Positions 1,476 to 39,589 of a stretch of 64,000 bases of DNA are shown piece by piece. The translations under genes and the position numbers were made by a program. Below the pieces are notes generated by a model. The model was not told the origin of the DNA. It made no database searches and worked only from the letters and a program-made list of their open reading frames with translations. The stretch's first letter is position 1, and each line of letters opens with the position of its first letter. This DNA is from an uncultured bacterium. GTDB lineage: Bacteria; Margulisbacteria; WOR-1; CAZGTC01. The DNA lies in the NCBI GenBank assembly GCA_964528395.1, contig CAZGTC010000005.1, positions 80,840 to 144,839 on the forward strand. The letters run 5' to 3'.

Positions 1476-2333
1476 TTACTTTGAAATTTCTTCAATTAAC
1501 CGTTCTAAATCTTCTTTAGAGAAATAATCGATCTCTATTTTTCCGCGCGTAGTTTGGCCGAAAATCCTAACTTTGGTGGCCAAGCGGGTGGTTAATTGTT
1601 CTTCTATGTTTTTTAGCTCCAAATTGCGGGTAAATTTTTTGCGTACAGTTTGTTTTTGCGGCTTGTTTGGCGACGCAAATCCAGCTACAGTTTCAACATC
1701 CCTTACGCTCATTTTGGTTTCCACGATTTTATTCCAAAGCTCGAGCTGTTTTTCCTTAGTATCAAGGGCTAGGAGGGCGCGGGCGTGGCCAGCTGAAATT
1801 TTATTGCTGCGCAGGCTTTCTTTGATCTCATCCGGCAAAGTTAAAAGGCGCAAGGTGTTGGTAATGGAGGAGCGGCTTTTTCCCACGCGCTTGGCGATCT
1901 CTTCCTGCGGGATATCAAATTCTGAAGACAGTTTTTGGTAAGCTTCGGCAGCTTCCATGGGATTGAGGTCTTCCCTCTGTAAATTTTCGATCAGCGCGAT
2001 TTCCAAAGATTGCTGGTCAGAAAAATCTTTTACAATCGCAGGAATAACATTTAAGCCAGCAATCTTTGCAGCGCGGAAACGGCGCTCCCCAGCAATAAGT
2101 TCATAAGTTCCCTGCTTCATCCTGACCAGAACCGGCTGGATAATGCCTTGTTCTTTGATGGAGTTGGCCAGTTCTTGGATGGCTTTGTCCGAAAAGTGCA
2201 AACGCGGCTGGCGCGGGTTGGGAATAATCTTATTAATATCAATATTAATAATTGTCCTTCCCCCCATAAAAACCGACCCTTCTGGAATCAATGCATTCAA
2301 CCCTTTGCCTAAACCTCGTTTAATGTTTGACAT
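1476..2333 (-). CDS. parB: Chromosome partitioning protein ParB/Spo0J
   Basis: The GERRFRAAKIAGL ParB box and an HTH region are present. It overlaps parA in the classic arrangement. Confidence 0.9.
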   Translation of the reverse strand: MSNIKRGLGKGLNALIPEGSVFMGGRTIINIDINKIIPNPRQPRLHFSDKAIQELANSIKEQGIIQPVLVRMKQGTYELIAGERRFRAAKIAGLNVIPAIVKDFSDQQSLEIALIENLQREDLNPMEAAEAYQKLSSEFDIPQEEIAKRVGKSRSSITNTLRLLTLPDEIKESLRSNKISAGHARALLALDTKEKQLELWNKIVETKMSVRDVETVAGFASPNKPQKQTVRKKFTRNLELKNIEEQLTTRLATKVRIFGQTTRGKIEIDYFSKEDLERLIEEISK

Positions 2334-3100
2334 TCAAACACCTCCTCGGAAATCATTTCTTGCGTTAACTGTTCGTAAGCTTTGGCGCCGGTAGAGCCAG
2401 GATCATAAAAAAGGATCGGCTGCCCGAAACTCGGGGCTTCGGCTAAGCGAACATTTCTTGGGATAATAGTTTTAAAGACCTTAGTGCCGAAGTGTTTTTT
2501 GGTTTCTTCGACCACTTGTTCGGCCAAAACTGTCCGTTTATTATACATGGTCATAACAATTCCGCAAATCTTTAAGTTGGGATTCAAACTGTTCTTAACC
2601 ATGTCCAAAGTTTTGGTTAATTGGCTGATGCCTTCAAGCGCATAATACTCGCATTGTATAGGGATAATTACTTCATGGGCGGCGGTCAAGGCATTCACGG
2701 TTAAAAGGCTAAGGGAAGGCGGGCAGTCAATCAAAATATATTCATATTTATCGCGGATGCATTCCAAGGCTTCTTTTAATTTATATTCTCTTTGATTTTT
2801 ATCCACCAACTCAACATCGGCTCCAGCAAGCTTTGGGGTGGCGGGGATGATGTCTAAGCCGTTTATGGAAGAGGGAATAATCGCGTCTTGGGCAGACATT
2901 TCTCCGATGATTACATCATATAAGCATCTTTCTACGCGCATCCTTTCTACCCCTAGGCCGGACGAAGCATTGCCCTGGGAATCAAGGTCAACGACCAGGA
3001 CTTTTTTTCCGAAATTAGCGAGAAAAGCGGCAAGGTTAACGCAAGTGGTGGTTTTTCCAACCCCGCCTTTTTGATTGACAACTGCGTAGATGGTGGACAT
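2309..3100 (-). CDS. parA: ParA/Soj partition ATPase
   Basis: Deviant Walker A motif VVNQKGGVGKTTT at the N-terminus, and ParA-like throughout. Confidence 0.9.
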   Translation of the reverse strand: MSTIYAVVNQKGGVGKTTTCVNLAAFLANFGKKVLVVDLDSQGNASSGLGVERMRVERCLYDVIIGEMSAQDAIIPSSINGLDIIPATPKLAGADVELVDKNQREYKLKEALECIRDKYEYILIDCPPSLSLLTVNALTAAHEVIIPIQCEYYALEGISQLTKTLDMVKNSLNPNLKICGIVMTMYNKRTVLAEQVVEETKKHFGTKVFKTIIPRNVRLAEAPSFGQPILFYDPGSTGAKAYEQLTQEMISEEVFECQTLNEV

Positions 3101-3240
3101 GAATTTAGTATAGCAGAAAAGGCAAGAAAAAATCCTAATGTCCGAAAGCCCGAAATATTAAGAAGATATTTTATCGAAAGTGAAATTTTTGAATAGGGCG
3201 GACGATAATAAAAAAGATTCCTATTAGGAGGGACAACATA

Positions 3241-5241
3241 ATGAAAAATCAATGTGTAAAGAGAAAGCCTCTGCCAGTTGCCAACAATATAAATAATGTA
3301 GCTGGAATTGAGAGAGCAATAATTTTCTTAAAGAATACAGCTTTTGCTTTCCCTAGTCAGCCTACGATTGTCAAGGTAATGCCTAGTTCTTTAGTTTTAC
3401 ATGAACAATACTTTACGGACTCCAAACTATGTGGAATTTTGCGTGATATGGGGGTTGTTGGTTTCAGAATAATAAAAAGGCATGGAGAACAGAAGGTTTT
3501 AGAAGAACTTCAAAAATTATTTGAGTATGTTTTTGATACAGATGAAAATGCAGTTGCTGCTCTAATGAAGGCGTCTATTGTTTTGGAGAAATTGCCGCAG
3601 ACCGAGGAAGCTAAAAACCCTCAGTTGAATTTAATAGATGATTTACTTACTGTTGATCGTACATCTTTAGATCCAGAGACATGTGGGATATTAGGGAATA
3701 TAGATCAATTATTGTGGGATCTTAATGGTAATAGGCGAGCCATAATAGAAGCAATTCAGACGATAAAAATAAAAGGCAAACCAATCCCTTTTTTTGTTGC
3801 AGAAGGACTTTTTGGTCGCGGCCTTATTATTGAGAGAATTATTAAAATGATCGATTTTTGTCGTTGGCAAGGTGGTAGGTTTTCAATTTCGAATGCTTCG
3901 CAAATGGCATTAACCAAGAATCCCGAAGGAGCTTTTAAAAAAGCTATTGAAATAGTAGAGATGCAAGGTAGTAGTAAAAATAAAATATTTAGTGCGGCTC
4001 AAGCAACAGAAATAGCAACCTCAAAAAATCCCCCAGCCACTTTAACCTTTGTTTTGAGCATTATGGAATTAACAGATGAGAGAAAAGAGTTTATTTTTAA
4101 TGCAGCGCAGGCCGTGCAAATAGCTATTTCTCAAAATCCAGAAGGGGCAAAACAGGACGCATTGGATGCGTATAATTGGATTGATAGCTTAGGTTGCCGA
4201 TGTTTTAATGCTTCCCAAGCTACTCGGCTGGCAACGGCAAGGGATTTTACTGCTTCAGTGGTAATTGCAGTTGATATTTTAGAGTTAAGAGGGGAAGATA
4301 AAAAAAGGTTGTTTAGCCCTAGTCAAGCAATAACAATTGCAACATCAAGTAATCCGGGAGAATCAAAAGAAATAGCTTTGGGTCTTATGCGGAAAAATGT
4401 CCAAGGGGAGAGAGTGTTTGATGCAGCCCAAGCAACAAAAATAGCAACCTCAAGAAAGCCCAGGGAATTAAGTGGGGCTATCAGCGTTATAATGCAGTTA
4501 GAAGACGAAGGTAAAAATCTTTTGTTTAATTCTGCCCAAGCGGTACAAATTGCGACAGCAAAAAATCCCAGCCACGCCCTGAATTTAGTACTAAGCTTGC
4601 TCGGGAAAAAAATTGGAGAGGAAAGAATGTTTACTCCTGCCCAAGCAATAAAAATAGCTAATTCTAAAGATCCTGAAAAAGCTGAAAAAATCCATTTAGA
4701 CATAATAAAATTGCGTGACAAAGCAGGAAACAAAATTTTTACCAGTTCGCAAGCAGCAGATATAGCATCATCTTCGAACCCAGATGTTTCACTAGAAATA
4801 GCTTTAAGAATATTGCGGATAGTAGATGTAAAAGGAAATTGTGTTTTTAATGCAGCGCAAGCAATATCAATAGTCACAGCTAAAAACCCCGAAGAAGCCT
4901 TAAGGCTTTCACAAGAGCTTCTGACTGAAGAAAAACTAGCACAACTGTCTCTTACTGTTGTGCAAGCTGTAGATATTGCAACTTCAAATAATTCACGAGT
5001 AGCTCTCTCCAGGACATTAAAAATAATTAACCTTAAAGGAGATGGAGGCGAAAAGATATTTAGCGTAAAGCAGGCAATTGCTATTGCAACTTCATCTAAT
5101 CCAAGCTTGGTAGAGGGGGCGGTACTTGCGCTTGTAAAGTTTTATGATCCAGGAGAAGCGTTAAGCATAGCATTATCACCTAAGATGGAAGAAGTTCTTA
5201 TCTCCCATGGGATTAAATTAGGAGAGAGTGAAGAAGAGTAA
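3241..5241 (+). CDS. Tandem-repeat protein with ~12 copies of a ~39-aa unit (F.AAQA.QIATSKNP...L..LL...). Function unknown.
   Basis: The periodicity is visible in the translation. The amino-acid composition is coherent and the gene starts with ATG. Confidence 0.6.
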   Translation: MKNQCVKRKPLPVANNINNVAGIERAIIFLKNTAFAFPSQPTIVKVMPSSLVLHEQYFTDSKLCGILRDMGVVGFRIIKRHGEQKVLEELQKLFEYVFDTDENAVAALMKASIVLEKLPQTEEAKNPQLNLIDDLLTVDRTSLDPETCGILGNIDQLLWDLNGNRRAIIEAIQTIKIKGKPIPFFVAEGLFGRGLIIERIIKMIDFCRWQGGRFSISNASQMALTKNPEGAFKKAIEIVEMQGSSKNKIFSAAQATEIATSKNPPATLTFVLSIMELTDERKEFIFNAAQAVQIAISQNPEGAKQDALDAYNWIDSLGCRCFNASQATRLATARDFTASVVIAVDILELRGEDKKRLFSPSQAITIATSSNPGESKEIALGLMRKNVQGERVFDAAQATKIATSRKPRELSGAISVIMQLEDEGKNLLFNSAQAVQIATAKNPSHALNLVLSLLGKKIGEERMFTPAQAIKIANSKDPEKAEKIHLDIIKLRDKAGNKIFTSSQAADIASSSNPDVSLEIALRILRIVDVKGNCVFNAAQAISIVTAKNPEEALRLSQELLTEEKLAQLSLTVVQAVDIATSNNSRVALSRTLKIINLKGDGGEKIFSVKQAIAIATSSNPSLVEGAVLALVKFYDPGEALSIALSPKMEEVLISHGIKLGESEEE

Positions 5242-5251
5242 TTGCTTTTTA

Positions 5252-5986
5252 TTAATTCGCGCAAGATAATTTAGAGATGATCTGTTCGCGCACTTCGTTC
5301 AAGACTTTTTCTTGGTCTTCCCTCTTGTGATTTTCCGGAACTTCGGATTGGATGGCCGGAGAAATAGTTAAATTAACTGTGGTGTAATTTAAAATAAAAC
5401 CGCCTTTTTGCATAATATTGTAACTTCCATCGATAGTAATGGGCAGGATAGGGGCGTGACTAATAAAAGCCAGCATCAAACTGCCTCTCTTAAATTCCCC
5501 GACTTTCCCGTCTTTAGATCGGGTGCCTTCGGGAAAGATCAAGATATTTTCTCCTTGTTTTATCAAGTCTTTAGCCTGGTTTAGGGTTTTGATTGCGCTG
5601 CGGGCCGAATCCCGATCAATTGAAAGATAACCAGCTTTTCTTAAATACCAGCCAAAAATTGGCACCTTGAAAAGCTCTTGTTTTATGATAAAACGAAAAC
5701 TCTGGGGCAGGCCAGCCAAAAGGATCAATATATCAGCTGCGCTTTGATGGTTCGCAACAACTACTAAACCATTATTTTTTGGAAAATTTTCTAATCCATA
5801 CACCTTTAATTTGGATCCGGACATGCAAATTAGCAATTTAGCCCACATTCGAGCGGCAATCAAAAAAGGCCGGGTTTTGTCTTTTTCTTGCATTGAAATT
5901 GCAAAGGCAATTGAAGTGCCGATTACATAAGTTAGCGCAGCAATTAAGTAAACCATAAGAGAATGCGCGATTTTTATGAATTGCAT
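5252..5986 (-). CDS. plsC: 1-acyl-sn-glycerol-3-phosphate acyltransferase
   Basis: NHQSAADILIL (HxxxxD motif) and FPEGTRS motif, with an N-terminal transmembrane helix. Confidence 0.8.
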   Translation of the reverse strand: MQFIKIAHSLMVYLIAALTYVIGTSIAFAISMQEKDKTRPFLIAARMWAKLLICMSGSKLKVYGLENFPKNNGLVVVANHQSAADILILLAGLPQSFRFIIKQELFKVPIFGWYLRKAGYLSIDRDSARSAIKTLNQAKDLIKQGENILIFPEGTRSKDGKVGEFKRGSLMLAFISHAPILPITIDGSYNIMQKGGFILNYTTVNLTISPAIQSEVPENHKREDQEKVLNEVREQIISKLSCAN

Positions 5987-6102: not shown

Positions 6103-7071
6103 TTATATTATTCTCCATAGTTCTTCTTTTGTGGTTAATCCGAGCTTGATTTTTTCTTTTCCATCTTCAGCAAGAGTTTTAAAATTTTGGCTGATGGCTT
6201 CTTGAAGATTATTTTCAACCATGAACATTTCAAATATTCCGATCCGGCCTCCCTGCGGTTTTCTGGCCAAGCGCTGGGCAACCACGCCGATTAAAGTGGC
6301 ATTGATCAAAAAATTTGGGATCCCGATATCTTTTAAGCGCGTAATCGCAGAAACTGCGTCATTGGTATGCAGGGTTGAAAGCACCAGATGCCCGGTGAGT
6401 GCGGATTGGATGGCAATTTTTGCAGTTTCTTCGTCCCGGATTTCTCCAATCATAATAATATCTGGATCCTGCCGCAAAATAGAGCGCAGCCCGCGGCTAA
6501 AAGTTAAACCAGTTTTATAATTGACCTGGATTTGATTGATTCCTGGCAGTTTATATTCAATCGGGTCTTCGATGGTTGAAATATTTACCTCGCTGGAGTT
6601 CAAAATATTGAGCGAAGCATAAAGCGTGGTAGTTTTTCCAGACCCAGTTGGACCAGTAACCAGCAAGATTCCGGTTTTTCTCTGCAGCATTTTATGGTAA
6701 AGCGTTAAGTGTTCTTTTTGCATGCCGAGATTTTCCAGCGATAAGAGCGAGTGTTCTCGATTGAGAATCCTGATGACGCATTTTTCGCCATGGCATGTCG
6801 GAATTATCGATATCCTAAGGTCCATTTTTTGGTATTGGATTCTCCCGTCTTGCGGCAATCTTTTTTCCGCAATATCCAGATGGGAGATGACTTTAATCCT
6901 GGAAACAATTTGCAAATGGGCGTCTTTTGAGAGGGAATTTATCTCATTTAAAATCCCATCGGTGCGAAAACGGACCCGGCTATTTTCTTCTTGCGGCTCA
7001 ATATGGATATCTGAAGATTTGCATTTTATAGCTTGATCTAATAGTTCGTTTAAAGTATTAATTGTGTTCAT
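6103..7071 (-). CDS. pilT: Type IV pilus retraction/twitching ATPase PilT
   Basis: GPTGSGKTTTLYASL Walker A and PilT/GspE-family sequence throughout. I moved the start to the internal Met (MNTINTLNELL) because the upstream extension lacks PilT similarity and overlaps the next gene. Confidence 0.8.
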   Translation of the reverse strand: MNTINTLNELLDQAIKCKSSDIHIEPQEENSRVRFRTDGILNEINSLSKDAHLQIVSRIKVISHLDIAEKRLPQDGRIQYQKMDLRISIIPTCHGEKCVIRILNREHSLLSLENLGMQKEHLTLYHKMLQRKTGILLVTGPTGSGKTTTLYASLNILNSSEVNISTIEDPIEYKLPGINQIQVNYKTGLTFSRGLRSILRQDPDIIMIGEIRDEETAKIAIQSALTGHLVLSTLHTNDAVSAITRLKDIGIPNFLINATLIGVVAQRLARKPQGGRIGIFEMFMVENNLQEAISQNFKTLAEDGKEKIKLGLTTKEELWRII

Positions 7072-7225
7072 ACAGGGGTAATATGCAATTTTCAGGCCAG
7101 CAATAAATAATGGAACCCACCAGCCGCCTAAAAAAAATATTTTACCAGGTGAAATTTTTTTAAGGATTGTTAGAAGGTACCTTAAGGTTTGTAAGCGTTT
7201 TATAATAAAAGACAGTTTAGTTTTT

Positions 7226-10200
7226 ATGTATATAAATTTTTTACTTGATTGTTTTCCTTTGTTAAGTTCCCCGGTTCTTATCCGCACGGAAATTTCTGAA
7301 GAGAAAAAACAATTGTTATGGAAATTGAAGTGGGAAGCTTCTCCCGAAGAAAGAGTTCGCATTGCTGAAACTTTGGGAGAATTAAAGGATGATAATGCCG
7401 CTATTATTCAAGGCCTTGCAAATGCTTCTTTGGGAGTTAGCTGGAGAGTTAATTATAAAGCCCTGGAAGCTTTGGCGACGATTAATACTTCCAAATCAAT
7501 TTCAAAACTCCTGCAGAGAATTGGCAGCTATGTTGTTTCCGCTAATTTTGCTTCTTTGGTAGAAGTTCTAAATAATCCCAAGTCAACCCTTCCGCAAAGA
7601 TTGTCAGCGCTCATAAATTTGGGGAGAATAAGAGATCGCCGGGCGGTCAAAATTTTGTGTGATATTTTATTGAACCGTAAGGAATGCTGGCAGATGCAAG
7701 CCGTGGCAGCAGAGGCCCTGGCAGAGTTTGGTTTTGAAGCGGTTGAAGCTTTGAAAAAAGCCTTAGAAAATTGCTGCTGGCGGGCAAAACCTTATATTGT
7801 CCAGTCTTTGGGAAGAATTTTTCTGCTGCATACGCTTGCATTAAAAATTACAAAAAATCCAATTTATAAAGATGCGTTGCAAGTTAAGCAAATATGCCAA
7901 AACCACAAGGCTTTGGCCGAGGGTGTTGTAAATGTCCTTATAAAAGCGATTAGGGAAAATAACTGCGTGGTTGGAAAATATGCGGCGGGTGCGCTGGCAA
8001 TGATAAAGGATGAGCAGGGGCTGCCGATTTTATTAAAGGTTTTTAGGAGTGCAGATCTGAATTTTCGCAAGCATATAGCTATGCTGGTGCTGGATAACCT
8101 AAAACAGCATTCTTTTGTTACTGGGTTCGCTTTGTTTTCCAAGCAAATATTTGAAAATATGGAGCTGGAAGAAAAAGGTTTTTTAATTTCTATAGCCAGG
8201 GAGATCTACGGTTCTGAAAAAGGCCATTTAGCGGGTTTCTACCAAATTTATCAAGTATCTCCCCCGCCGCCACAGCCTCAAGTTTATCCTGCCAGTGCCC
8301 CCAAAAAAGCAGTTATCGTAAAAAAACAAACAAAAGAAAAATCGCCGTTGGAAATAAAAAAAGGACAGTTATTAAGATCTTTACAAGAGGGTTTAACTAA
8401 ATTAAATTTTCAGGTGGCAGCGTATGAGAAAAATCGTTCTATTCCAGTACAATTGTTCCATTCATTCAAGGCTGCAATTGCCCAATTTAAGCTGCGCTGG
8501 CTGAATAAAATTAATGCTGAAATAAATAGCGGCTTAAATTTTGCTTCTTTAACAAAAGAAATTCGCCAAAATGTTGAAGGTTTATCAAATTTATTAAAGC
8601 AACAGTACGTTAATGTTTATCAAAAAACCAAGATGTATAGTATTGAAGATAAAGAAAGCGTATGTATGCGAGTGGCCGGGTGCTATGGGCTAAAAAAAAT
8701 AAAATTCCCAACTCCAGGGCTGGAAGCAAGGTGGCAGAAGTGGTGGAAGTTATATAGAAATAGCATGTATAGGGAGATCAATAAAACTATCGCCCGATAT
8801 GATATAGATAAAAAAATCTGGTTGAATAAGGCCAAGCCCGAAGAAAAACTGGCGTTGTATTATAGTTTTCAAAAGTACCGCACTTTTCTGGAAAGAGCAA
8901 AAAAAGATCTGCCCGCAATTGTAAAAACTTTGTTTTTAGCCCTGAAATTCGATGGAAACTACGAAGTCCTAAAAGATTTACTCTTCGAAAGGATTTTTCC
9001 CAGATTAGAAATTCATCAAAAGTTATCTTATAAAAACGCAGCAGGACTATATTATATAGGTAGCAAAAAATATTTGGGTAGAAATGTGCGGCAAGGAACG
9101 ATTAAGTTAAAGCAAAAAAGTACGTGTGAAAGTTATAATTTGTTTTCAGATGTTAATGTCCATGAAATCATGCATTCTTTGCCAGATAGAGGAGTAAATT
9201 ATAAAAAGGAAGCTTACAATTTGTTTTTTGAAGGCGTGACAGAATTTTTGCATCAAGTGTTAAATCAATATTTTTATCTTCCAAAATATGTTGCTTATGC
9301 GAGTGAGGTTGTATTAGTTTACGCTGCTTCGCTTTTTGATTTTAAAGCAGTGGTTGATTATTATCGCGGGGCTAATGCCATAAAATGGATGCATTTAGCT
9401 AATAAACTGTTTTTAAATTATCCAGTTTTAAAAACCGTTTTCCTTTCTTTAGAACCCAAAATCAAATCAGAGGATTCGGCTAAAAGAAAAAAGGCAGCTA
9501 TAGCTATTATCAAGGAGCGCTTTCAAGAATTAAAACCAGAAAAGATTGTGAGCTTGATCTCGCGCCCTTATCTGCCATATGATTTGCCTTTTTGGATGGG
9601 GAATTTTTATAAGTTTCTTATTAGTGAAAAAACAATTCCGGATATAAATAAGAGAAGAAACGTAGCTTATCTTCTCTTGAAAGCGTTTGTTAGGCTGGAA
9701 AAATATTATGTTATTTCTGAAAAGTCAATTATATATTTGACGGGGTTGCTTTCTTTAAAACAAAAACAACAATTGTTTGGAGATTTTTCTAGGCAGTTGC
9801 TGTTCGATTCCGCAAATCATGATATTCGCTATTTTTATCCTATTTATGCTTTAGCTTATGATATGAAAGATCTTCGATATTATATCCGAGGATTTAATCT
9901 ATTAATAAAAGCACTTGATAAGCTCAATTTTTGCACCTCGGTTAATTTGAACATAAATCCATTTAGCGTGGTTGCCCAATTAGCGCAAAGGATATTTGAA
10001 AAAAATTCGGATTTTTCATTTTTTAGGGTTGCTTGGGAGAAAATATCCCATAAATTAGAAGAAACTCCCGGCGAATATTTAAAGGGAGGAGATTATCAAG
10101 TGCTGAAAGATTTATTAAATAATTTTAAGGATGAAGAAAAAGAGGAAAAGGCAAAAAAATTCCGTTTGTTAGTAGAAAAAAAGATTAGGGAATATTTGGA

Positions 10201-10399
10201 TTATTATGTAAAAAAAGATGGTTGCTTGAATATAGTTGCAATCGGCAATTTGGAAGAACTATTTGTTGCTGATGATGAAATAAAGGCCTGGATTATTAAT
10301 CTTTTGAAAGCAAAAGAGCTGAAAGTTACAGAATTGGCAGCGCTTAAATTAAAATCATGGGGAATAAATAATCTTAAGCAAATGGTGAAAGAATGGTGA
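7226..10399 (+). CDS. Large protein (1057 aa) with N-terminal PBS-lyase-type HEAT repeats, a PPPPQPQ linker and a ~700-aa unknown domain containing an HEIMH (HExxH) motif
   Basis: HEAT-like repeats at the N-terminus (LGELKDDNAAIIQGLANA..., LGRIRDRRAVKILCDIL...AVAAEALAEFG). It is the first gene of the same-strand cluster. Confidence 0.6.
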   Translation: MYINFLLDCFPLLSSPVLIRTEISEEKKQLLWKLKWEASPEERVRIAETLGELKDDNAAIIQGLANASLGVSWRVNYKALEALATINTSKSISKLLQRIGSYVVSANFASLVEVLNNPKSTLPQRLSALINLGRIRDRRAVKILCDILLNRKECWQMQAVAAEALAEFGFEAVEALKKALENCCWRAKPYIVQSLGRIFLLHTLALKITKNPIYKDALQVKQICQNHKALAEGVVNVLIKAIRENNCVVGKYAAGALAMIKDEQGLPILLKVFRSADLNFRKHIAMLVLDNLKQHSFVTGFALFSKQIFENMELEEKGFLISIAREIYGSEKGHLAGFYQIYQVSPPPPQPQVYPASAPKKAVIVKKQTKEKSPLEIKKGQLLRSLQEGLTKLNFQVAAYEKNRSIPVQLFHSFKAAIAQFKLRWLNKINAEINSGLNFASLTKEIRQNVEGLSNLLKQQYVNVYQKTKMYSIEDKESVCMRVAGCYGLKKIKFPTPGLEARWQKWWKLYRNSMYREINKTIARYDIDKKIWLNKAKPEEKLALYYSFQKYRTFLERAKKDLPAIVKTLFLALKFDGNYEVLKDLLFERIFPRLEIHQKLSYKNAAGLYYIGSKKYLGRNVRQGTIKLKQKSTCESYNLFSDVNVHEIMHSLPDRGVNYKKEAYNLFFEGVTEFLHQVLNQYFYLPKYVAYASEVVLVYAASLFDFKAVVDYYRGANAIKWMHLANKLFLNYPVLKTVFLSLEPKIKSEDSAKRKKAAIAIIKERFQELKPEKIVSLISRPYLPYDLPFWMGNFYKFLISEKTIPDINKRRNVAYLLLKAFVRLEKYYVISEKSIIYLTGLLSLKQKQQLFGDFSRQLLFDSANHDIRYFYPIYALAYDMKDLRYYIRGFNLLIKALDKLNFCTSVNLNINPFSVVAQLAQRIFEKNSDFSFFRVAWEKISHKLEETPGEYLKGGDYQVLKDLLNNFKDEEKEEKAKKFRLLVEKKIREYLDYYVKKDGCLNIVAIGNLEELFVADDEIKAWIINLLKAKELKVTELAALKLKSWGINNLKQMVKEW

Positions 10400-10408
10400 G
10401 GTAATTTT

Positions 10409-11722
10409 ATGAGTAGTTATATACCAGGAATATCTTCTAAACCAATAAAAGTTGCCCGGGCAGATATTGATCCCCGCTGGCAGCAGGCTAAAGAATTGCT
10501 GAATAAACTCTTTAGGGAAGGCGCTATAAACAAAACTATATATAATTTGTTGTTGAATAAAATTGAAAAAAGAGAGTGGGGCCTTGAGCAGATTCAAAAT
10601 CTGGAAAAACTTTATCGGTTATATGTTCTGGTAAAAGCCTGGTTCCAAAACAATGGGCAAGCATTAATTAATTATTATGAAAGCAATTTTTCTTCCCCAA
10701 CGGCTAAAAGTATAAAATTGCCAGTAGTTTTTATGCGAGAAGCTAGAAGATACCTAATGCCAAGCGAGGTTGGGCTTAGCCGATTAAAAACTAAAATTGG
10801 CGCATTGACGCAGGCATTAAATTCTGTTGGGTTTAAAAATGCCAACGAAAACTATTTGAAATTCGGCAAATATCTTTTGGATAAGTCGGGCATTGATTGG
10901 CTGCAATACTCAATGGAAAAAATCCTGGGTATTCTAAGGCAAAATTGCCAAATAATTTTTCCCAAGTACCAAAGCCTAAAGCATCGTTACCCGATAACCT
11001 TTGCCTGTAATTTCCAAAAACCCGGCCAATTCAGGACCGACCGGATTTTGTGGAAGCCGTGGGCAGGCTACGACCTTTCCACCGGGGCAAAGAGAAGAGA
11101 GTTTTTGAAAAATAATCTTTGGGGCGAATTATTATTTATGCATATTATAACAACCCCGGAGAAATTCGGCATTACAAAAGATGATCCAGCGTATGCGGAT
11201 GTTGCCATGCTGATGCGGCACCGTTTTAGCCGTCTTTTGCAGGATTTAGCAAAGAGAAAAAAAGCAATTTTATATAGGGATGTTTGGCATATTACAAGCT
11301 ATTATCAAACAACCCCTTGGCCGCAGTGGTTTAAGGATATCTGGGAAGTCTTTTTAAGAAATCATCCTTTTATTAATCTTGGGCATAAGGTAATGGCGAT
11401 CTTGAAAGAAAAAGGATTGCCTTTGGAACTCTACGACTTTGACAGCCTTTTCAAGGTCAACCAAGCCTTGCGGCGTTTTGGGGCAGATTATTCTGCTCGG
11501 CCAGAAAAAAGGGGGACAATCGTTTTTTCAATTGCCCGACTGATACATTATCGCTCCCATTTGAGAATAAAACTTTTGCTTCCAAAGGCATTGCAAAAAG
11601 AATTCCTTTTTCTCTTGGGCCAGAAACTGCGCGAGTTGGGAATAAACGATATAAACATTTTAACTATTTTTAGTAAAATGACTAGAAGTAAAAATCAGGC
11701 AATTGTTTTTGAGGTATTCTAG
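10409..11722 (+). CDS. Hypothetical protein (437 aa)
   Basis: ORF track. Begins 10 bp after the previous gene, so it is probably co-transcribed. Confidence 0.5.
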   Translation: MSSYIPGISSKPIKVARADIDPRWQQAKELLNKLFREGAINKTIYNLLLNKIEKREWGLEQIQNLEKLYRLYVLVKAWFQNNGQALINYYESNFSSPTAKSIKLPVVFMREARRYLMPSEVGLSRLKTKIGALTQALNSVGFKNANENYLKFGKYLLDKSGIDWLQYSMEKILGILRQNCQIIFPKYQSLKHRYPITFACNFQKPGQFRTDRILWKPWAGYDLSTGAKRREFLKNNLWGELLFMHIITTPEKFGITKDDPAYADVAMLMRHRFSRLLQDLAKRKKAILYRDVWHITSYYQTTPWPQWFKDIWEVFLRNHPFINLGHKVMAILKEKGLPLELYDFDSLFKVNQALRRFGADYSARPEKRGTIVFSIARLIHYRSHLRIKLLLPKALQKEFLFLLGQKLRELGINDINILTIFSKMTRSKNQAIVFEVF

Positions 11723-11774
11723 GTTTTTAGCAGTATAATTTCATTAATGTATTATTTTTGAAAAGGAGAAAAAA

Positions 11775-12314
11775 GTGGGAATAATATCTACATCAAACTA
11801 TCATTGTTTTCTCGAAGGGCCAAGGCATCGGATCGCGATTCCGTGGACGGCAAACCTTGAACAGAGATTAAAACCAATTTATTCAGGGCATCCCCAAGAG
11901 AAACTATGCAAAGATTTGTTGATGATAAGTGAAAATATTAAAGAATTAAAAAAAGAACGGGAAGCAACGGATATCTGGTCCTGGTTAGTGCGTTGGTTTA
12001 CTAGAGGAAAATATGTTTATATTCCCGAAAAATGCCAATGCAAGCCCCGGCCTATTTATCGCCATTCTTTGCCGCCAGAAAAACAACCGTCTCGAAAAAG
12101 ACAAGCCCCACAAGTAAAGATAGAACAAACCCCTGCGGTTGTTGTTCCTCCTACTCCTAAAAAAAAGATAGATCCCAAAGTTATTCGTCAATGTACGCAG
12201 GATGAATTTCTAAGGAAAAGAAGTGCGGATAACGCCCAGGCAAAGCAATGTATAAAGGAATGTAATGGAAAGTCCGGTGCAAAGCTAGGGAATTGTACTG
12301 CTAGATTTTGGTGA
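11775..12314 (+). CDS. Small Cys-motif protein (179 aa) with a P-rich linker, paralogous to the 20159..20815 product
   Basis: Shares the YSGHPQ...C...W..W..RG....PEKCQC block with the 20159 ORF. Confidence 0.5.
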   Translation: MGIISTSNYHCFLEGPRHRIAIPWTANLEQRLKPIYSGHPQEKLCKDLLMISENIKELKKEREATDIWSWLVRWFTRGKYVYIPEKCQCKPRPIYRHSLPPEKQPSRKRQAPQVKIEQTPAVVVPPTPKKKIDPKVIRQCTQDEFLRKRSADNAQAKQCIKECNGKSGAKLGNCTARFW

Positions 12315-12339
12315 TTATTACTATAGAGGAGTTAAAAAA

Positions 12340-15300
12340 ATGGGAATGAAAGTAGAAAGAAATAATGTTCAGCATCCGCGAGGGGCTCCAAATGGAGTAG
12401 GGAGAGCAGGACAACCTTTTAACCTTCAAAAAGGTTCTTCTGCCGGAGGAATTCAAGCTTTTAGGCCGATGGTTGAAGAGAGATTAAATAAACACCCCCA
12501 TTTACAATCTTTTGATATTCTGGGAAAAATCGAAAGAATTGAAGCAGTCTTAAAAGAAGACGGCTTAAAAATAGATGTATTCGGAATTTTTGAAAAAATC
12601 CTTACTTTTTATAATCCAAATTTAGAAGGTATTGAATTAGAAGGAAAAATTGTTGCAATTGTTGATGAGGCATTATCTAATTTAAGCAATAAGGAAGATA
12701 TTTGGAAAAAATTATTGGTTTTTGATGTTCCGGGAGAGGAAACGTTTTTCCCCTTAGCAACAATGGTTCAAGTAGCGCATTTGATTTTTTTGCATAAAGA
12801 AAGCAAAGCTGGCAATCTTCCTATAACTTCTCCTTTGCAGAGCGGCCAAAATATAAAGATACTATTAGAAACATTGAGCCCTAAATCGGAAATCTATAAT
12901 TTTTATCGAATAGCAAAAGAAAAAAAATTGATTGGAACGAATCAAGCTGAAATAGAACAATTTGTAGGTAAAAATTTTGTAATCGCGGGAGAAAAAATAA
13001 AAGGGCAATGGGAAGCTCTTTATGCCACTAATCGAGAAAATGAAATTAATGACCCATTAGGGCACTTGGGTTATTTAAGTGAATTGTGGCAAAGAAGAAT
13101 TGGAACAGAAGAAGAATTAAAACTTATTGTTAAGGCTTTATGCCAGTCTGTTGGGGTTCCGTTTAGTGATGCAGCTAGTAAAAACTTTAACCCTACAGTA
13201 ATTAATTCTTCGGAGGAATTAGAAACGTTTAGGAAAAAAGAGAGAGAGATTCCTCTTTTGTCTAATGTTTTATCTGTTTGGAATTTTTCAAAAGATTCAA
13301 GAAATACATTAGTTTGTAATGATCGTAGTTTGTTTCGAAATAATTTATCTGCCCCAAAGGGTATGTGGAGAGAAAGCGATGAGGGGGTATCTTTAGAAGG
13401 AGACGCTTATTTGGAAGCTCCAATGACCGCTTCCTTGAAGAGCTTAGGCGGTCAATTTTCTTTTTCTGCCAGGATAAAGCCAGCAAATTCAGATAAATGG
13501 CGTGATTTATTGGTTACTTGTCAAAATGGAAAAACAGTGATTCTGCTGGATGGTAAAGAAACAGGCACAACTGATGTGTCTTATGTACAACTTGGAGAAG
13601 AAAAATTACAGCTTTTTAAGGGGTTTAAAGGGGTCATTGAAAACGGGTTCTCTCTCTGGTATACGGTCATGTCCCCAGAAAAAATAAAGGAAGAACAAGA
13701 GAAACAAAAAAAGGAATCATTGCAAGCAAGCTCACCGATAGTTTTCCCTCCAGTACAGAATATGAATATTTCAAGAGTTGTAGATCCAGCTCCTAAAGTT
13801 TCTGCGATGCGAGAAATTAAAGAAACTGATAAAAACCATAATGCGGGTTTAGAGCTATGGAATAAATATCTTAAATATCAAGAATATGCTGCAAAGTTAG
13901 AACGAAATCAATTGAAAAGAGCAGCAAAAATTGGTCTTTGGTTTGGAGTCCCAACTCCGCTGGTTGTTCAAACTGCAATTAAAACATGGCTAATGCTAAA
14001 TTCTGTCGAATATTTTGGAAGCTTGGGTTTTCCTATTTTTGAACTAGGGGCTGGAGTGGTAATTTTTTCCTTAGCATTTAGCATATCTTATTTTGTGAAT
14101 AAATTAATCATGAGATCAACAGAAAAGGGGTTGGGTCTTCTTGGGAAAAAAGCCGAAGATGAAAAGATGGAAAAGTTTTTGGGAATTATAAAGGGATGGT
14201 CTCAAACTGATCCGGAAAGATTTAAGGTAGCGCAAGCATTCATTACAAAGGCTGAAACTTCAGCACAAGTAGATTGGGTAATAAATTGTGTTCTTAGTGC
14301 TAAAGAAGATGAACCCCTGATGCGCTTATCTCAAGCTAGTAATGACTTAATGCAAGGTTATGCTGTTCGTGATGGGGTTTTAAGAAGAGAGGCTCCTGCT
14401 GAACTTAAAGAAAAATTGAGCAATATTCAGAAAGAGATAAAACTATTGCCATCATCAATGAGAGATTTATCTTGTGCAGAAGAAGTAAAATATGCAAAAC
14501 AAATAGCCGACTTGCAAAATAGGCTGAATAAATTATCAGAAGAGCGCGACAACAATTTTAAAAAAGATCGAGAAGATTTGCCAGTCTTGCTTGGAGAAAT
14601 AAAAATATTTTGGCAGGTTATAAAAAAGATTTCAACAGAGGGAAAAAATGAAACAGAAAAATTGGGAGATTGTTTTGGCCACCTGTGGAAGCAAATAAAT
14701 GATATTTTATGTGAACAAAATATAAGCAAAACAGGGACGATTATTTGGGAGGAATCACCGTCAATCCCAAGAGAAGATAAGCCCTTAACAGAAGAATCTT
14801 TGGAAAAGAGATTTTTTGATGCTATCAATAGAGTACAGCAGAAAACGGATTTTTTTAGGGCGAGCATTAATTTGTCAAAGAAGGAGTTAGAAGAAAAGCA
14901 GGGGTCAATTTTAGAGAGTGCTCTTACTGAAGCAGATTTTGTTGCTCTTCCCATAAAACTTCAAGGGTTTGCTCGTAACTTGATAAGCGACATATTGGCA
15001 AGCAATTTAATTTTTACCCCTCCTTCAACAGACTCTGAAGAATGGGAGGACGTTGGAGGATATAAGGTTTGTAAATTAGGGGCAGGGGGATTTGCAGATA
15101 TATATCTTACGCAAGACCAAAAAAAGATTCTAAAAATCTTAAAGCTTCAATATTTATATAGTGAAGAATCGCGCCGTTTAGTGAGAGAAGCACTAGCACA
15201 ACAACTCGTTGTACATCCTAATATTGCGAAAGTTTATGGGAGGGATGAAAAAAATGGTTGGCTAATAACAGAATATGTTAAAGGGATTACTCTTGAGGAA

Positions 15301-15915
15301 TGGATGCAGACAAACGAAAAAGGATTAACAATTATACGAGCTTTGGCTATTTTATTCCAGATTGCCGATGGATTGGAAGCAGCTTTAGTAGAAGGAGTTT
15401 TTCATCGGGATATTTCTTCTCGTAATATTATGTTAAGCGTGGAAAACCCAGCGGAACTTGTAAAAATACTTGATTTTGGAATGTGTAAATTTTTTGAAGG
15501 AGGACCGGCTTATGAAGAAGCTGCGTCAAACCCCAGGCTAAATACAGCATCAGCTCAATTTTCTAAAATGTCAGGAGGAACCCTTGATTATATTGCGCCA
15601 GAACAAGCTATAACATCTTTACAAGAGAAAGGGAAACTTAACTTTAAAGTTGATCTGTTTGCTTTGGGAGTATTATTATATCGAATGTTAACTGGTAATT
15701 TGCCTTTTAATTATGAAAATAAAGGGGTTGAACCACGTGTCCAACATGGAATAGCTTGGTTAGACGAGCAGGTAAATCCAGACTTAACAAATATTCCAGA
15801 AAAAATTCATTCCTTATTGGAGAGATTATTAAAACGAAATCCTCTAGACCGTTATGATGATTACCAAGAATTAAAAGAAGATATACTTAAAATTGCACGG
15901 TTCTATGTAATTTAG
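12340..15915 (+). CDS. Giant membrane protein (1191 aa) with a LamG/ConA-like domain, transmembrane helices, a coiled-coil region and a C-terminal Hanks-type Ser/Thr kinase-like domain with a variant catalytic loop
   Basis: Hanks subdomains are visible: LGAGGFADIY (G-loop), ILKILK, HRDISSRN, DFG, YIAPE and DLFALGVLLYRMLTG. The LamG-like stretch reads FSFSARIKP...LVTCQNGKTVILLDGKETG. Hydrophobic segments are at about residues 530-590. Confidence 0.7.
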   Translation: MGMKVERNNVQHPRGAPNGVGRAGQPFNLQKGSSAGGIQAFRPMVEERLNKHPHLQSFDILGKIERIEAVLKEDGLKIDVFGIFEKILTFYNPNLEGIELEGKIVAIVDEALSNLSNKEDIWKKLLVFDVPGEETFFPLATMVQVAHLIFLHKESKAGNLPITSPLQSGQNIKILLETLSPKSEIYNFYRIAKEKKLIGTNQAEIEQFVGKNFVIAGEKIKGQWEALYATNRENEINDPLGHLGYLSELWQRRIGTEEELKLIVKALCQSVGVPFSDAASKNFNPTVINSSEELETFRKKEREIPLLSNVLSVWNFSKDSRNTLVCNDRSLFRNNLSAPKGMWRESDEGVSLEGDAYLEAPMTASLKSLGGQFSFSARIKPANSDKWRDLLVTCQNGKTVILLDGKETGTTDVSYVQLGEEKLQLFKGFKGVIENGFSLWYTVMSPEKIKEEQEKQKKESLQASSPIVFPPVQNMNISRVVDPAPKVSAMREIKETDKNHNAGLELWNKYLKYQEYAAKLERNQLKRAAKIGLWFGVPTPLVVQTAIKTWLMLNSVEYFGSLGFPIFELGAGVVIFSLAFSISYFVNKLIMRSTEKGLGLLGKKAEDEKMEKFLGIIKGWSQTDPERFKVAQAFITKAETSAQVDWVINCVLSAKEDEPLMRLSQASNDLMQGYAVRDGVLRREAPAELKEKLSNIQKEIKLLPSSMRDLSCAEEVKYAKQIADLQNRLNKLSEERDNNFKKDREDLPVLLGEIKIFWQVIKKISTEGKNETEKLGDCFGHLWKQINDILCEQNISKTGTIIWEESPSIPREDKPLTEESLEKRFFDAINRVQQKTDFFRASINLSKKELEEKQGSILESALTEADFVALPIKLQGFARNLISDILASNLIFTPPSTDSEEWEDVGGYKVCKLGAGGFADIYLTQDQKKILKILKLQYLYSEESRRLVREALAQQLVVHPNIAKVYGRDEKNGWLITEYVKGITLEEWMQTNEKGLTIIRALAILFQIADGLEAALVEGVFHRDISSRNIMLSVENPAELVKILDFGMCKFFEGGPAYEEAASNPRLNTASAQFSKMSGGTLDYIAPEQAITSLQEKGKLNFKVDLFALGVLLYRMLTGNLPFNYENKGVEPRVQHGIAWLDEQVNPDLTNIPEKIHSLLERLLKRNPLDRYDDYQELKEDILKIARFYVI

Positions 15916-15928
15916 GAGGTAAAAAAAT

Positions 15929-17275
15929 ATGTTTATTGCTCCGCTTTCTTTTGTCCACGGGTTATTCGAATCTAATTTATTGGTTAATGCGGGGAACCCT
16001 AGAAAACCGCGGGTTTCCAAGCGCTTATTGGATTTGTTAAAAAAAATGGAAAAAGAAAAGGATCCTGCAAAAAGAGAGTTTGCTTATCTGACCTTAAAGT
16101 CATTGCTAAAGCATTCTAGGGAAAAAAATAATATGGTGCTGGTTTTAATTAATAAATTAAATTCAAAGAAATCATTGATAGATGATAAAGACGACCATAG
16201 CTTTTGTGTTAGAGTCATTGATATATTAGGAGAAACAAGAGATAAAAGAGCAACCCCGATTTTATTAAGATGGTTTAAAAATTGTCCACAAATTGCTGAG
16301 TCTCCATATGGTTTTGAAAATTGTATTACAATTAAGAAGAATATTGCAAAAGTTTTGGGAAAAATAAAGGATCATCGAGCTGTGCCGGATTTGATAGCTA
16401 TTGGGCTAGGGCATCAAGATGGAGAAGTGAGAGAAGCTTCGGCTTGGGCTTTGGGAGAAATTAGGGATCCACGAGCAATAATATCTTTGGTTAAAATGCT
16501 TGAGAGAAGGGATTATTTGTGTAATCTTTATTTTTTTGACCTTGTTATCCGAGCTTTGGCGAAGATTAAAACGAGAGATACTATTCTTGCATTAATAGGT
16601 TGTTTTAAAAAGATAGAAAAGTGTCGCATTATTACTGTCACCATAAGAATAAAAATGATTGGCAGGCGGATCTACAAATCTCATCAAAATTCTTTAGAAA
16701 AAATTTTTTTAGAAATCGCGGATGAAAAAGTGGTGAAAATGTTGAAAAATGCGGCTAAGGATACTCTTCGCAGATCTGGGAATTGGGGAACAATTGCTAG
16801 AATTATCGAAGTTTTTAAGAAAGCGGTTAAGAAAATAATTGATATAAAATATAATCAATATAGGTCAATCATTGAGGCGGCTATAATCATCAATTCACGA
16901 TATTTAACCGCATCTCGCTATCAAAAACAACAAATAATTTCGCAGTTGAGAAGAAAAGTACCGCCAAGACTAATTTCTGTGCTCTTAAGACAGGGAGCCA
17001 GGGGCTTTAATATGCAAATGTTATTAATGCTTCCCCTGGATCTTCGCCAGAGCCTTATTGCTAAAAAGCAACGAGGCGGGCAAACGGTCAAAGTATTGAG
17101 AGCGGTTTTGGGCGAAATCGAAGCCAGCAAGAACAAAGAATATTCACGGCGCATCTGTGAATTACCCTCTAAGGATAAGGCTTTTTGCAATATTATAAAA
17201 GAACTTAAGCGGAGAAAAGCGGAAGGCTCTCCTGTTTATATAGGACAACCTTCTTCTCCATGGGATGTCAAATGA
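15929..17275 (+). CDS. HEAT-repeat (PBS lyase-like) protein, 448 aa
   Basis: Repeats such as DKRATPILLRWF, DHRAVPDLIAIGLGHQDGEVREASAWALGEIRDPRAIISLVKML. Confidence 0.65.
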   Translation: MFIAPLSFVHGLFESNLLVNAGNPRKPRVSKRLLDLLKKMEKEKDPAKREFAYLTLKSLLKHSREKNNMVLVLINKLNSKKSLIDDKDDHSFCVRVIDILGETRDKRATPILLRWFKNCPQIAESPYGFENCITIKKNIAKVLGKIKDHRAVPDLIAIGLGHQDGEVREASAWALGEIRDPRAIISLVKMLERRDYLCNLYFFDLVIRALAKIKTRDTILALIGCFKKIEKCRIITVTIRIKMIGRRIYKSHQNSLEKIFLEIADEKVVKMLKNAAKDTLRRSGNWGTIARIIEVFKKAVKKIIDIKYNQYRSIIEAAIIINSRYLTASRYQKQQIISQLRRKVPPRLISVLLRQGARGFNMQMLLMLPLDLRQSLIAKKQRGGQTVKVLRAVLGEIEASKNKEYSRRICELPSKDKAFCNIIKELKRRKAEGSPVYIGQPSSPWDVK

Positions 17276-17324
17276 TCTGGAGCGTCTAGATAGTATTATG
17301 CATCTAGTTTTTAGAAGGTAAAGT

Positions 17325-18947: not shown

Positions 18948-18960
18948 GAGCTAAATTATT

Positions 18961-38974: not shown

Positions 38975-39589
38975 ATGAATTTTAAGGAATTTCGAGAAAA
39001 AACCAAACAAGTCCCTTTTTTACAGAGCGATTTAGCTAAATTATTTTCTGTGGAACCCCAGGCTATGCGTAACCAGCTCCAGCGCTGGAAAAACAAGGGG
39101 CTAATCATTTCTCTGAAGAGGGGGGTTTATCTTTTAAACCAAGAGGAAAGAACAAATTCTATTTCAAGGCAGGTAATTGCGGCTAATCTCTATACTCCTT
39201 CATATATTAGCCTAGAAACAGCGCTAAGCTATTATAAATTGATTCCCGAAAAAATTGTGAGTCTAACTTCGGTCACTACCCGTAAAACAAAAACTTTCCA
39301 AAATAAAGAGGGGTTATTTATCTACCGGCATTTAATGAAAGAAGCCTATTTTGGTTTCCAGCTTATGCGTGATGAATATGGGTTTCCATATTTTATGGCA
39401 GAACCAGAAAAAGCGCTTCTTGATTTTCTATATCTTAATCTGGGAAGTATTCAATCGGACAATAATGATTATTATGCTTTATCTCTAAGGTTGCAAAATC
39501 GGTCTCTTTTAAATAAGAAAAAATTAACCTTGTATGCCAAGCGTTATGCCGTAAAAAAACTATTAAAAATTGTGGAGAAGCTAAAATGA
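38975..39589 (+). CDS. AbiEi-like antitoxin/transcriptional regulator (type IV TA)
   Basis: AbiEi-like N-terminal winged helix. Overlaps the toxin gene by 4 bp. Confidence 0.6.
   Translation: MNFKEFREKTKQVPFLQSDLAKLFSVEPQAMRNQLQRWKNKGLIISLKRGVYLLNQEERTNSISRQVIAANLYTPSYISLETALSYYKLIPEKIVSLTSVTTRKTKTFQNKEGLFIYRHLMKEAYFGFQLMRDEYGFPYFMAEPEKALLDFLYLNLGSIQSDNNDYYALSLRLQNRSLLNKKKLTLYAKRYAVKKLLKIVEKLK

Follow-up and report, generated by a model that had tools for sequence, protein, structure and literature searches.

The window analyzed here is a 64,000-nucleotide (nt) stretch of contig CAZGTC010000005.1, from an uncultured bacterium of the Margulisbacteria (WOR-1). Near its start lies a gene for a 666-amino-acid (aa) protein, P0001, about two-thirds of which is a tandem array of helical repeats that are very probably remote homologues of the repeats found in effectors of the transcription activator-like type (TALEs). 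A preliminary description, made from the sequence alone, had read the protein as about 12 tandem repeats of about 39 aa forming a novel alpha-solenoid, and had suggested that it is a partition- or nucleoid-associated scaffold. The 666-aa open reading frame (ORF) that it reported is present on the plus strand, preceded by a ribosome binding site, and the gene does diverge from parA, across a 140-bp spacer (Table 1). This spacer contains a candidate promoter, which is tentative, as the region is no richer in such matches than shuffled sequences.

Eleven units of the array are clear from an anchor motif, [FL]xxxQ[AV]xx[IL][AV], which starts at aa 250, 286, 322, 358, 393, 429, 464, 500, 536, 571, and 607, i.e., at spacings of 36, 36, 36, 35, 36, 35, 36, 36, 35, and 36. 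Together with a degenerate first unit, R0, they make 12 tandem units that cover aa 214 to 642 (65% of the protein), after which comes a truncated last unit. The number of repeats given earlier was thus right, as was the consensus: F at position 1, A-Q-A at positions 4 to 6, I-A-T-S at positions 9 to 12, N-P at positions 14 and 15, and a Leu/Ile-rich second half. In contrast, the strictly regular period of about 39 aa was not recovered, since the measured period is 35 to 36 aa and regular only within one residue. The statement that the protein is made of repeats applies to the array but not to the non-repeat N-terminal domain that precedes it. The two halves of the array align with each other (BLASTP E = 7e-28, 31% identity), a degree of repetition far above chance, and the units are 33 to 47% identical to one another at the protein level. 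The DNA of the units is only 48% identical on average, and Tandem Repeats Finder, run on the DNA, reported nothing; we conclude that the array is old.

Table 1. Features of the TALE-like gene, its product, and the adjoining genes (positions in the window)
Feature	Position (nt)	Strand	Remarks
TALE-like repeat protein P0001, complete ORF	3241..5241	+	666 aa; TAA stop at 5239-5241
Shine-Dalgarno sequence AGGAGG	3226..3231	+	9 nt before the ATG; read straight from the sequence
Candidate sigma-70-like promoter GTGAAA-18-GATAAT	3180..3209	+	weak; consensus scan, 9/12 positions match
Non-repeat N-terminal domain	3241..3789	+	aa 1-183 (domain end placed at about 180-213); from alignment with homologues
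Tentative degenerate unit "R-1"	3790..3879	+	aa 184-213, FFVAEGLFGRGLIIERIIKMIDFCRWQGGR; by-eye likeness to the second half of the repeat
Repeat R0	3880..3987	+	aa 214-249, FSISNASQMALTKNP...; degenerate first unit, N for Q5; 19.7 bits with the hidden Markov model (HMM) of the unit
Repeats R1-R11	3988..5166	+	aa 250-642, each 35-36 aa
C-terminal cap	5167..5238	+	aa 643-666; acidic tail GESEEE at the end
parA	2309..3100	-	divergent from the TALE-like gene
parB	1476..2333	-	
PlsC-type acyltransferase gene	5252..5986		convergent with the TALE-like gene
ATPase of type II secretion system/type IV pilus (T2SS/T4P) type	6103-7362		opposite strand, beyond plsC

The N-terminal domain is kept only in two of the homologues described below, P0003 and P0004. 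It matched no Pfam or NCBIfam family, the only match to a solenoid-type model being one below threshold to Pfam TPR-S (E = 0.005; 17.8 bits, cutoff 27.6 bits), and AlphaFold confidence was low over it in a single-sequence model. A scan for hydrophobic signal or transmembrane segments found none in P0001, P0003, or P0004. The stretch of P0003 equivalent to R-1 scored -0.2 bits with the unit HMM, leaving R-1 without statistical support. At the other end of the array, the stretch that starts at aa 638, GEALSIALSPKMEEVLISHGIKL, looks like a last unit cut short, and the AlphaFold model described below has two short helices there (aa 637 to 644 and 649 to 655); we infer a likeness to the terminal half-repeat of TALEs.

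Written out, the unit F-x-x-A-Q-A-x-x-I-A-T-S-x-N-P-x-x-A-L is similar to L-T-P-E-Q-V-V-A-I-A-S-[HD]-G-G-K-Q-A-L of TALEs, and its 35 to 36 aa agree with the repeat length of the TALE-like superfamily (about 33 to 35 aa), slightly above the classical range. Searches with P0001 by itself gave weak signals. No Pfam family was significant, the PF03377 (TAL_effector) model gave no match, phmmer found no match in the PDB, and a single-unit profile reached dTale2 with a marginal E value of 0.81. The NCBIfam model AvrBs3 matched aa 429 to 597 far below its threshold (E = 2.2e-8, 32 bits), which we took as a lead only, because repeat proteins inflate HMMER E values. We then relied on a multi-repeat family alignment, A6, whose 10 rows comprise P0001 and fragments of its homologues P0002 to P0006 and no TALE. 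Against 177,635 distinct PDB sequences, the best 31 matches of the A6 profile were all TAL effectors or BurrH (E = 1e-33 to 2e-14), including PthXo1 (3ugm; 1.4e-33), BurrH (4cj9; 1.3e-22), AvrBs3 (2ypf; 3.8e-22), and dHax3 (1e-17 to 1e-21), and the first match after them had an E value of 0.23.

A phmmer search with P0001 over 1.84 billion cluster representatives returned 7 proteins, including the query, and the sole match outside the small family was a TALE. This protein, P0007 (740 aa, E = 3.6e-4), is a genuine TALE with 35-aa units (LTTEQVVAIASNGGGKQALE...); its E values are 7e-70 with the Pfam TAL_effector model and 1e-142 with AvrBs3. BLASTP aligned 125 aa of P0001 with P0007 (31% identity, 2 gaps, E = 1e-11), holding register over 3.5 consecutive repeats, and gave further high-scoring segment pairs at 5e-8 and 6e-4. 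Owing to the 35-aa period of P0007, only one gap per repeat was needed in the alignment. Comparison of A6 with P0007 by hhalign gave a probability of 92% and an E value of 5.7e-7 over 150 columns, and single-unit profiles of the family and of TALEs aligned position 2-27 on 2-27 (P = 6.7e-5). As a control that retains the repeat structure, the columns of all units of the TALE array were reordered by one random permutation, in 2000 rounds; a score against the family unit HMM as high as the real one was reached by a single permuted array. Together, these results allow us to state with high confidence that the units are homologous, albeit remotely, to TALE repeats.

The predicted structure pointed to the same superfamily. 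An AlphaFold2 model of aa 393 to 666, built with A6 and therefore with no TALE rows, and without templates, had a predicted local distance difference test (pLDDT) value of 89 and a predicted template modeling score (pTM) of 0.73, whereas the single-sequence model (pLDDT 47) was not usable. In the model, each unit consists of helix 1 (positions 3 to 10), a loop at positions 11 to 14 (T/S-S/A-x-N/D), helix 2 (positions 15 to 26), and a beta-bridged hairpin linker at about 27 to 36, with the sequence L-x-D-x-x-G-x-x-[IL]. In a Foldseek search of 350,542 PDB chains, 48 matches had E values of ≤1e-3 (5e-6 to 8e-4), all of them TAL effectors or engineered TALE arrays: dHax3 (3v6t, 5e-6) came first, followed by dTALE2, PthXo1, and TALE-deaminase fusions. 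BurrH ranked 49th, and the first non-TALE was a designed toroid with an E value of 0.075. The twelve helix-loop-helix units are thus predicted to stack as a TALE-like solenoid, in which T/S11-S/A12-x13-N/D14 sit where the loop of the TALE repeat-variable diresidue (RVD) sits.

The alpha-helical solenoid of the preliminary description is therefore borne out by the two-helix units of a model with high pLDDT. Its view that the repeat is not TPR, Sel1, Ank, or PBS-HEAT also stands, since no Pfam family was significant and no such fold was among the top 50 Foldseek matches. The novelty of the solenoid does not, as sequence profiles and predicted fold assign the repeat to the TALE-like family, whose function is known. 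As other identities for the repeat, PPR, PUF, HEAT, and TPR were rejected, none occurring among the fold or profile matches, and MOON, pTERF, and STAR were rejected as the same family as P0001.

Several observations weigh against a simple equation with TALEs. The TALE-like motif defined by de Lange et al. (2015; PMC4787788) is X6-V-X6-G-X13-L-X4-6, i.e., Val7, Gly14, and Leu29. P0001 has I, T, V, or A at position 7 (V in 3/11 units) and the conserved Leu at position 28, and position 14 of R1 to R11 is Asn in 8/11 units, Asp in 2/11, Lys in 1/11, and Gly in none; Gly14 is likewise absent from all 24 family units. According to the same work, G14-G15 is thought to be needed for loop flexibility, and K16 and Q17 form an electropositive stripe that contacts phosphates. 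In P0001, position 15 is Pro and positions 16 and 17 are frequently Glu or Asp, in an N-P-E-E helix N-cap, in place of the phosphate-contacting Lys16/Gln17. Position 12 is Ser or Ala, and the residues at position 13, from R0 to R11, are K K Q R S R K K S K N S, every one of them polar and capable of hydrogen bonding and 7 of them basic. None of the TALE combinations HD, NG, NI, and NN is found at positions 12/13; position 13 has no Asp, Gly, or Ile (the TALE readers of C, T, and A) and no deletion, and it is almost always Ser in P0003 and in another homologue, L010. Nor is it the most variable column (entropy of 2.1 bits, versus 2.9 bits at position 8).

Other points concern the methods. The AvrBs3 match was not reproduced by P0003 or P0004, and the inflation of HMMER E values in repeat proteins is such that spurious matches arose at 4e-10 (a family fragment to an aldolase) and at 2.6e-9 (a true TALE to CheB). 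The fit of the model to TALE structures was moderate (query-normalized template modeling score of about 0.52, root mean square deviation of about 6.8 Å, ∼20% identity), as expected if the superhelical parameters of the modeled array differ from those of TALEs, and AlphaFold, having been trained on TALE structures, could be biased toward them. Because Gly14 is missing and positions 12/13 and 16/17 are altered, we did not file the protein as canonical TALE-like; judged by its sequence, it is a homologous but distinct TALE-like variant.

The family is small. Besides P0001 and P0007, the phmmer search returned P0002 (7,186 aa, two blocks of the TALE-like repeat, E = 1e-60), P0003 (567 aa, with the N-terminal domain of P0001 and units of 32 to 36 aa, E = 3e-46), P0004 (844 aa, E = 5e-25), P0005 (658 aa, E = 3e-7), and P0006 (2,875 aa, E = 9e-6), and a metagenome scan added a second copy of the giant P0002 locus (L008/L009) and the new member L010. 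Unit lengths across the homologues range from 30 to 36 aa. A word-indexed search of 5.8 billion proteins returned the query alone, with a di-repeat profile returning nothing, and scans of 185,579 GTDB species representatives and of IMG/VR viral contigs yielded no relative. The family as a whole is matched by no model of Pfam or NCBIfam, and its named members are annotated as "hypothetical protein": P0005 (MEK9148796.1) from Candidatus Desantisbacteria, P0006 from Candidatus Omnitrophica/Omnitrophota, and P0003 at JGI. P0005 (L011) is partial, with three TALE-like units at its N terminus and several C-terminal hydrophobic segments; a sigma-factor fusion, considered for its middle region from an NCBIfam SigB/F/G match (E = 0.039), was rejected for want of Pfam backing. 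The L010 member, from a Loki's Castle sediment metagenome (SDBU01003377.1, nt 8978 to 10449), is cut off by the end of its contig. It carries, at the N terminus, a hydrophobic segment resembling a signal or transmembrane segment, and its units, 30 to 32 aa apart, alternate between ...VSSDPTEA... and ...TSSKRDDA..., with positions 12/13 always Ser-Ser.

The genes for the homologues lie in varied contexts. On three contigs, P0003 is encoded between BipA plus a 237-aa hypothetical protein and a 229-aa hypothetical protein plus deoxyhypusine synthase; the P0004 gene follows one for a 506-aa hypothetical protein; and the giant homologues are encoded between SpoIID and QueA. The preliminary description had proposed a check for co-occurrence with parAB, and none of the homologues with a readable context (P0003, P0004, the giants, and L010) adjoins parA or parB. 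The parAB adjacency is thus unique to this window and looks incidental.

The giant homologues are informative about which positions of the unit vary. L009 (Ga0315338_1000074) has an ORF from nt 2 with 24 to 25 units of 35 aa from aa 2844, and L008 has an ORF at nt 4367 with 10 to 12 units from aa 1844. These units are 92 to 93% identical at the nucleotide level, and their amino acid variation clusters at positions 4 (A/S), 8 (Q/R, or S/K/G/Q), 11 (V/I/T/R), and 13 (R/K). Position 11 has the top entropy in L009 (1.75 to 1.85 bits) and is second to position 8 in L008, and the R/K alternation at position 13 involves CGC versus AAA codons, with no base in common. Four types of unit occur in the giant homologue: Q8-V11-R13, R8-I11-R13, R8-T11-K13, and R8-R11-K13. 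In both arrays, Ser12 and Lys16 do not vary. Positions 4, 8, and 11 share one face of helix 1 (i, i+4, i+7), continuing into the loop. In TALEs, polymorphism falls at positions 4, 12, and 13 (PMC4787788); homogenized units with few variable positions near the loop are the TALE-type pattern, here shifted from 12/13. For the homologue, rather than for P0001, this pattern suggests that each repeat may recognize a ligand through positions 8, 11, and 13.

L007 (ENA ERZ27248688, k141_320602) carries the other copy of the giant locus. Its QueA and TGT are 100% identical to those of L008/L009, whereas its arrays contain 4+7 units versus 12+25, which could reflect a real expansion or the collapse of repeats in short-read assembly. 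The P0002 gene (L007 nt 10001 to 31561) encodes metallophosphatase-like and methyltransferase-like modules and the two TALE-like cassettes; 22 [AS][AS]S[LM]G linkers bracket the modules, both cassettes included, and aa 21 to 50 form a hydrophobic segment. The linkers could be polyprotein processing sites. Looser xSLG variants of them occur in P0006, which comes from an Omnitrophota metagenome-assembled genome (MAG), and just upstream of the P0002 gene lies another, for 8,002 aa (L007 nt 1 to 2937), that runs off the locus.

We compared P0001 with the described TALE-like systems. With the Xanthomonas TAL effectors (AvrBs3/PthXo1/Hax3; PF03377), it has in common tandem helix-loop-helix units of similar length and, in register, [L/F]1, Q5, [V/A]6, I9, A10, [S/T]11, A18, L19, and a Gly near the end; degenerate start units and a truncated end are probably common to both. 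It differs from them in having units of 35 to 36 aa rather than 34 aa, N/D14-P15 rather than G14-G15, S/A12 rather than H/N12, K/R/S/Q/N without D, G, or I at position 13, often acidic residues in place of K16/Q17, and units that share only 33 to 47% identity. In the model, a short helix 2 and a beta-bridge hairpin replace the single long kinked helix of the TALE unit. The N-terminal domain shows no relation to that of TALEs, the alignments with P0007 being confined to the repeats, and we detected no type III secretion signal, nuclear localization signal (NLS; by eye), or activation-domain architecture, the acidic tail being 6 residues long (GESEEE). P0007, a RipTAL-like TALE and the closest single sequence outside the family among the 1.84 billion representatives, has canonical RVDs (NG, HD, NN, NT), G14-G15, K16-Q17, and a PF03377 match, whereas P0001 has none of these.

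The Bat proteins (BurrH) of Mycetohabitans (Burkholderia) rhizoxinica (4cj9/4cja) are like P0001 in their divergent, non-identical repeats; they lack an activation domain, and none was recognized in P0001. Their 33-aa repeats, unlike the units of P0001, preserve the residues that surround the base-specifying position in TALEs (PMC4787788). According to published abstracts, Bat proteins are delivered into a fungal host by a type III secretion system (T3SS). MOrTL1 and MOrTL2 (PMC4787788), like the present family, are divergent orphans known only from metagenomes, with unusual residues near position 13; the identity of the MOrTL consensus to other TALE-like groups is 30 to 40% (PMC4787788). Compared by description only, MOrTLs have 33-aa units that retain Val7, Gly14, and Leu29, and in experiments they follow the TALE code, whereas the present family lacks Gly14. 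The STAR proteins PqSTAR1 and AspSTAR1 (Hu et al. 2024; PMC11417379) were also found by large-scale mining; they are distant from TALEs in sequence, and AlphaFold predicts helix-loop-helix units for them. Their canonical RVDs at 12/13, TALE code, and predicted type III secretion signals (PMC11417379) are absent from our family. No description of the present unit was found in the literature that we searched on TALEs, RipTALs, Bats, MOrTLs, and STARs, and the Omnitrophota giant-protein papers make no mention of TAL-like repeats. What is new here is a TALE homologue that fails two defining sequence features and comes with a new linker element and in a new taxonomic setting.

From its sequence and predicted fold, P0001 is very probably a remote, unnamed member of the TALE-like superfamily. 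We lean toward a function in which it binds nucleic acid in a modular way by a code that is non-canonical, and we likewise regard binding through the loops at positions 11 to 14 as somewhat probable. The array would form a TALE-type solenoid with these loops lining its inner face, and the loops would contact nucleic acid, most probably duplex DNA, with each unit taking up one base step. The contacts would come from Lys, Arg, Ser, Gln, or Asn at position 13, probably assisted by positions 8 and 11. Read by the TALE code, these residues would favor purines or be permissive. Since basic residues and Ser predominate at position 13 and acidic ones are frequent at 16/17, unlike in TALEs, we expect a non-canonical readout, probably purine (G/A)-biased or of low stringency, rather than the four-letter TALE code. 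An exact copy of GGNGAGGGAGRA, the target that a naive reading of the TALE code predicts, does not occur in the window; matches with ≤2 mismatches numbered 41 versus 23 expected, an enrichment that is uninformative because the pattern is purine-rich and resembles a Shine-Dalgarno sequence. A DNA-associated role is plausible on the strength of the homology to TALEs, not of the gene position. The gene stands alone and its product has no signal peptide; the protein could be an endogenous DNA-binding regulator or could be delivered to a host or prey cell.

Delivery of a DNA-binding effector, as for TALEs, RipTALs, and Bats, would be compatible with the mechanism proposed above, and we hold it to be possible but rather doubtful. 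The named relatives come from MAGs of Candidatus Omnitrophota and Candidatus Desantisbacteria, and two are giants of 2,875 and 7,186 aa, one with an N-terminal hydrophobic segment and the ASSLG-type linkers. Giant proteins of Omnitrophota have been interpreted as the extracellular effectors of cells that are predatory or host-dependent (bioRxiv 10.1101/2023.11.21.568195 and 10.64898/2026.06.07.730766), which favors export. So do the extreme rarity and patchiness of the family and the difference in unit number between loci with identical flanks, although the latter could be an artifact of short-read assembly. P0001 itself, in contrast, has no signal peptide, transmembrane segment, obvious NLS, or T3SS context (a scan of roughly 45 window proteins revealed no T3SS gene). 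It has no conserved link to any secretion-system gene, and the T2SS/T4P-type ATPase of the window lies past plsC on the opposite strand. Inter-organism conflict is hinted at by the relatives in Omnitrophota and Desantisbacteria and by the cassettes in giant proteins, whereas the window shows no sign of export.

We consider it unlikely that the TALE-like solenoid has instead been re-used as a scaffold for proteins or other ligands, with no nucleic-acid function and with positions 4, 8, 11, and 13 serving as a protein-recognition stripe. The lost Gly14 and the often acidic, helix-capping residues in place of Lys16/Gln17 argue against a binding mode identical to that of TALEs and keep such a scaffold under consideration. 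A scaffold would also agree with the narrow alphabet of position 13 (K/R/S, with Ser prevailing in P0003 and L010), the beta-hairpin linker without a TALE counterpart, the template modeling score to TALEs of about 0.5, and the occurrence of family modules in giant multidomain proteins beside phosphatase and methyltransferase modules. On the other hand, all characterized members of the superfamily bind DNA (TALE and BurrH, linked to the family by profile; MOrTL and STAR, by literature), basic or hydrogen-bonding residues dominate the loop position (K or R in 15/24 family units), and Lys16 is invariant in the homogenized giant arrays. The last alternative, the partition- or nucleoid-associated scaffold acting with ParA and ParB of the preliminary description, could draw on the shared 140-bp spacer and on the DNA binding made plausible by TALE homology, but it is very improbable, as homologues with a readable context never adjoin parAB and the family was not found in the scanned GTDB species representatives, whereas parAB is near-universal.

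Elsewhere in the window, an Rfam scan found no RNA family, no tRNA was found, and PADLOC gave no defense-system match for P0001, its homologues, or their neighbors. Large proteins without a known function that carry PBS-type HEAT repeats (1,057, 448, 540, 393, and 613 aa) are encoded at nt 7226 to 22857 (plus strand), a run that includes a 1,191-aa protein (nt 12340 to 15915) with a C-terminal Ser/Thr protein-kinase domain and that may be a single long co-directional gene cluster. An FtsH homologue of 1,050 aa (nt 55013 to 58165, plus strand) contains an intein (Pfam Intein_splicing, aa 256 to 685) within its AAA ATPase domain. The genes for a PorP/SprF-like membrane protein (type IX secretion) and a 1,593-aa FN3/Ig-like protein, whose C terminus matches FlgD_ig, adjoin at nt 41612 to 42730 and 42921 to 47702, both on the minus strand. 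They may represent a cargo pair of the type IX secretion system type and a hint of lineage, and a Big/FlgD_ig protein similar to the 1,593-aa one is encoded on the P0003 contig (L001 nt 18215 to 19636). A gene for an AbiEii nucleotidyltransferase toxin (nt 39586 to 40392) overlaps an unannotated upstream 204-aa ORF (pair at nt 38975 to 40392, plus strand), probably forming a type IV toxin-antitoxin pair. This pair directly precedes queA (nt 40401 to 41432), and tgt lies 9 kb onward (nt 50451 to 51533); QueA and TGT of the window are 43 to 49% identical to those on the giant-homologue contig.

TALE repeats are among the very few natural DNA readers with one module per base and are the basis of TALENs and TALE base editors. 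The described diversity of TALE-like proteins is very small, comprising those of Xanthomonas, Ralstonia, and Mycetohabitans, two marine orphans, and the STARs; for the question of how TALEs arose, the present family is an outgroup. It constitutes a new, almost unsampled branch of TALE-like repeats, with solid homology and an inferred function. The farthest-reaching version of our proposal, that the family is a deep non-proteobacterial TALE branch with a second, independent nucleic-acid code (positions 8, 11, and 13, with invariant Ser12 and Asn/Asp14-Pro15), used both in stand-alone proteins and in giant-protein cassettes of host-dependent or predatory bacteria, is speculative and in our judgment improbable. 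A clade that replaces the supposedly universal Gly14-Gly15 and His/Asn12 nevertheless probes which features of the repeat are truly required, and a few "hypothetical proteins" become a testable class. If nucleic-acid binding is true, the family would offer a new scaffold and possibly new specificities. Its occurrence in candidate phyla and its cassettes in giant proteins would extend TALE-type biology past plant and fungal symbioses.

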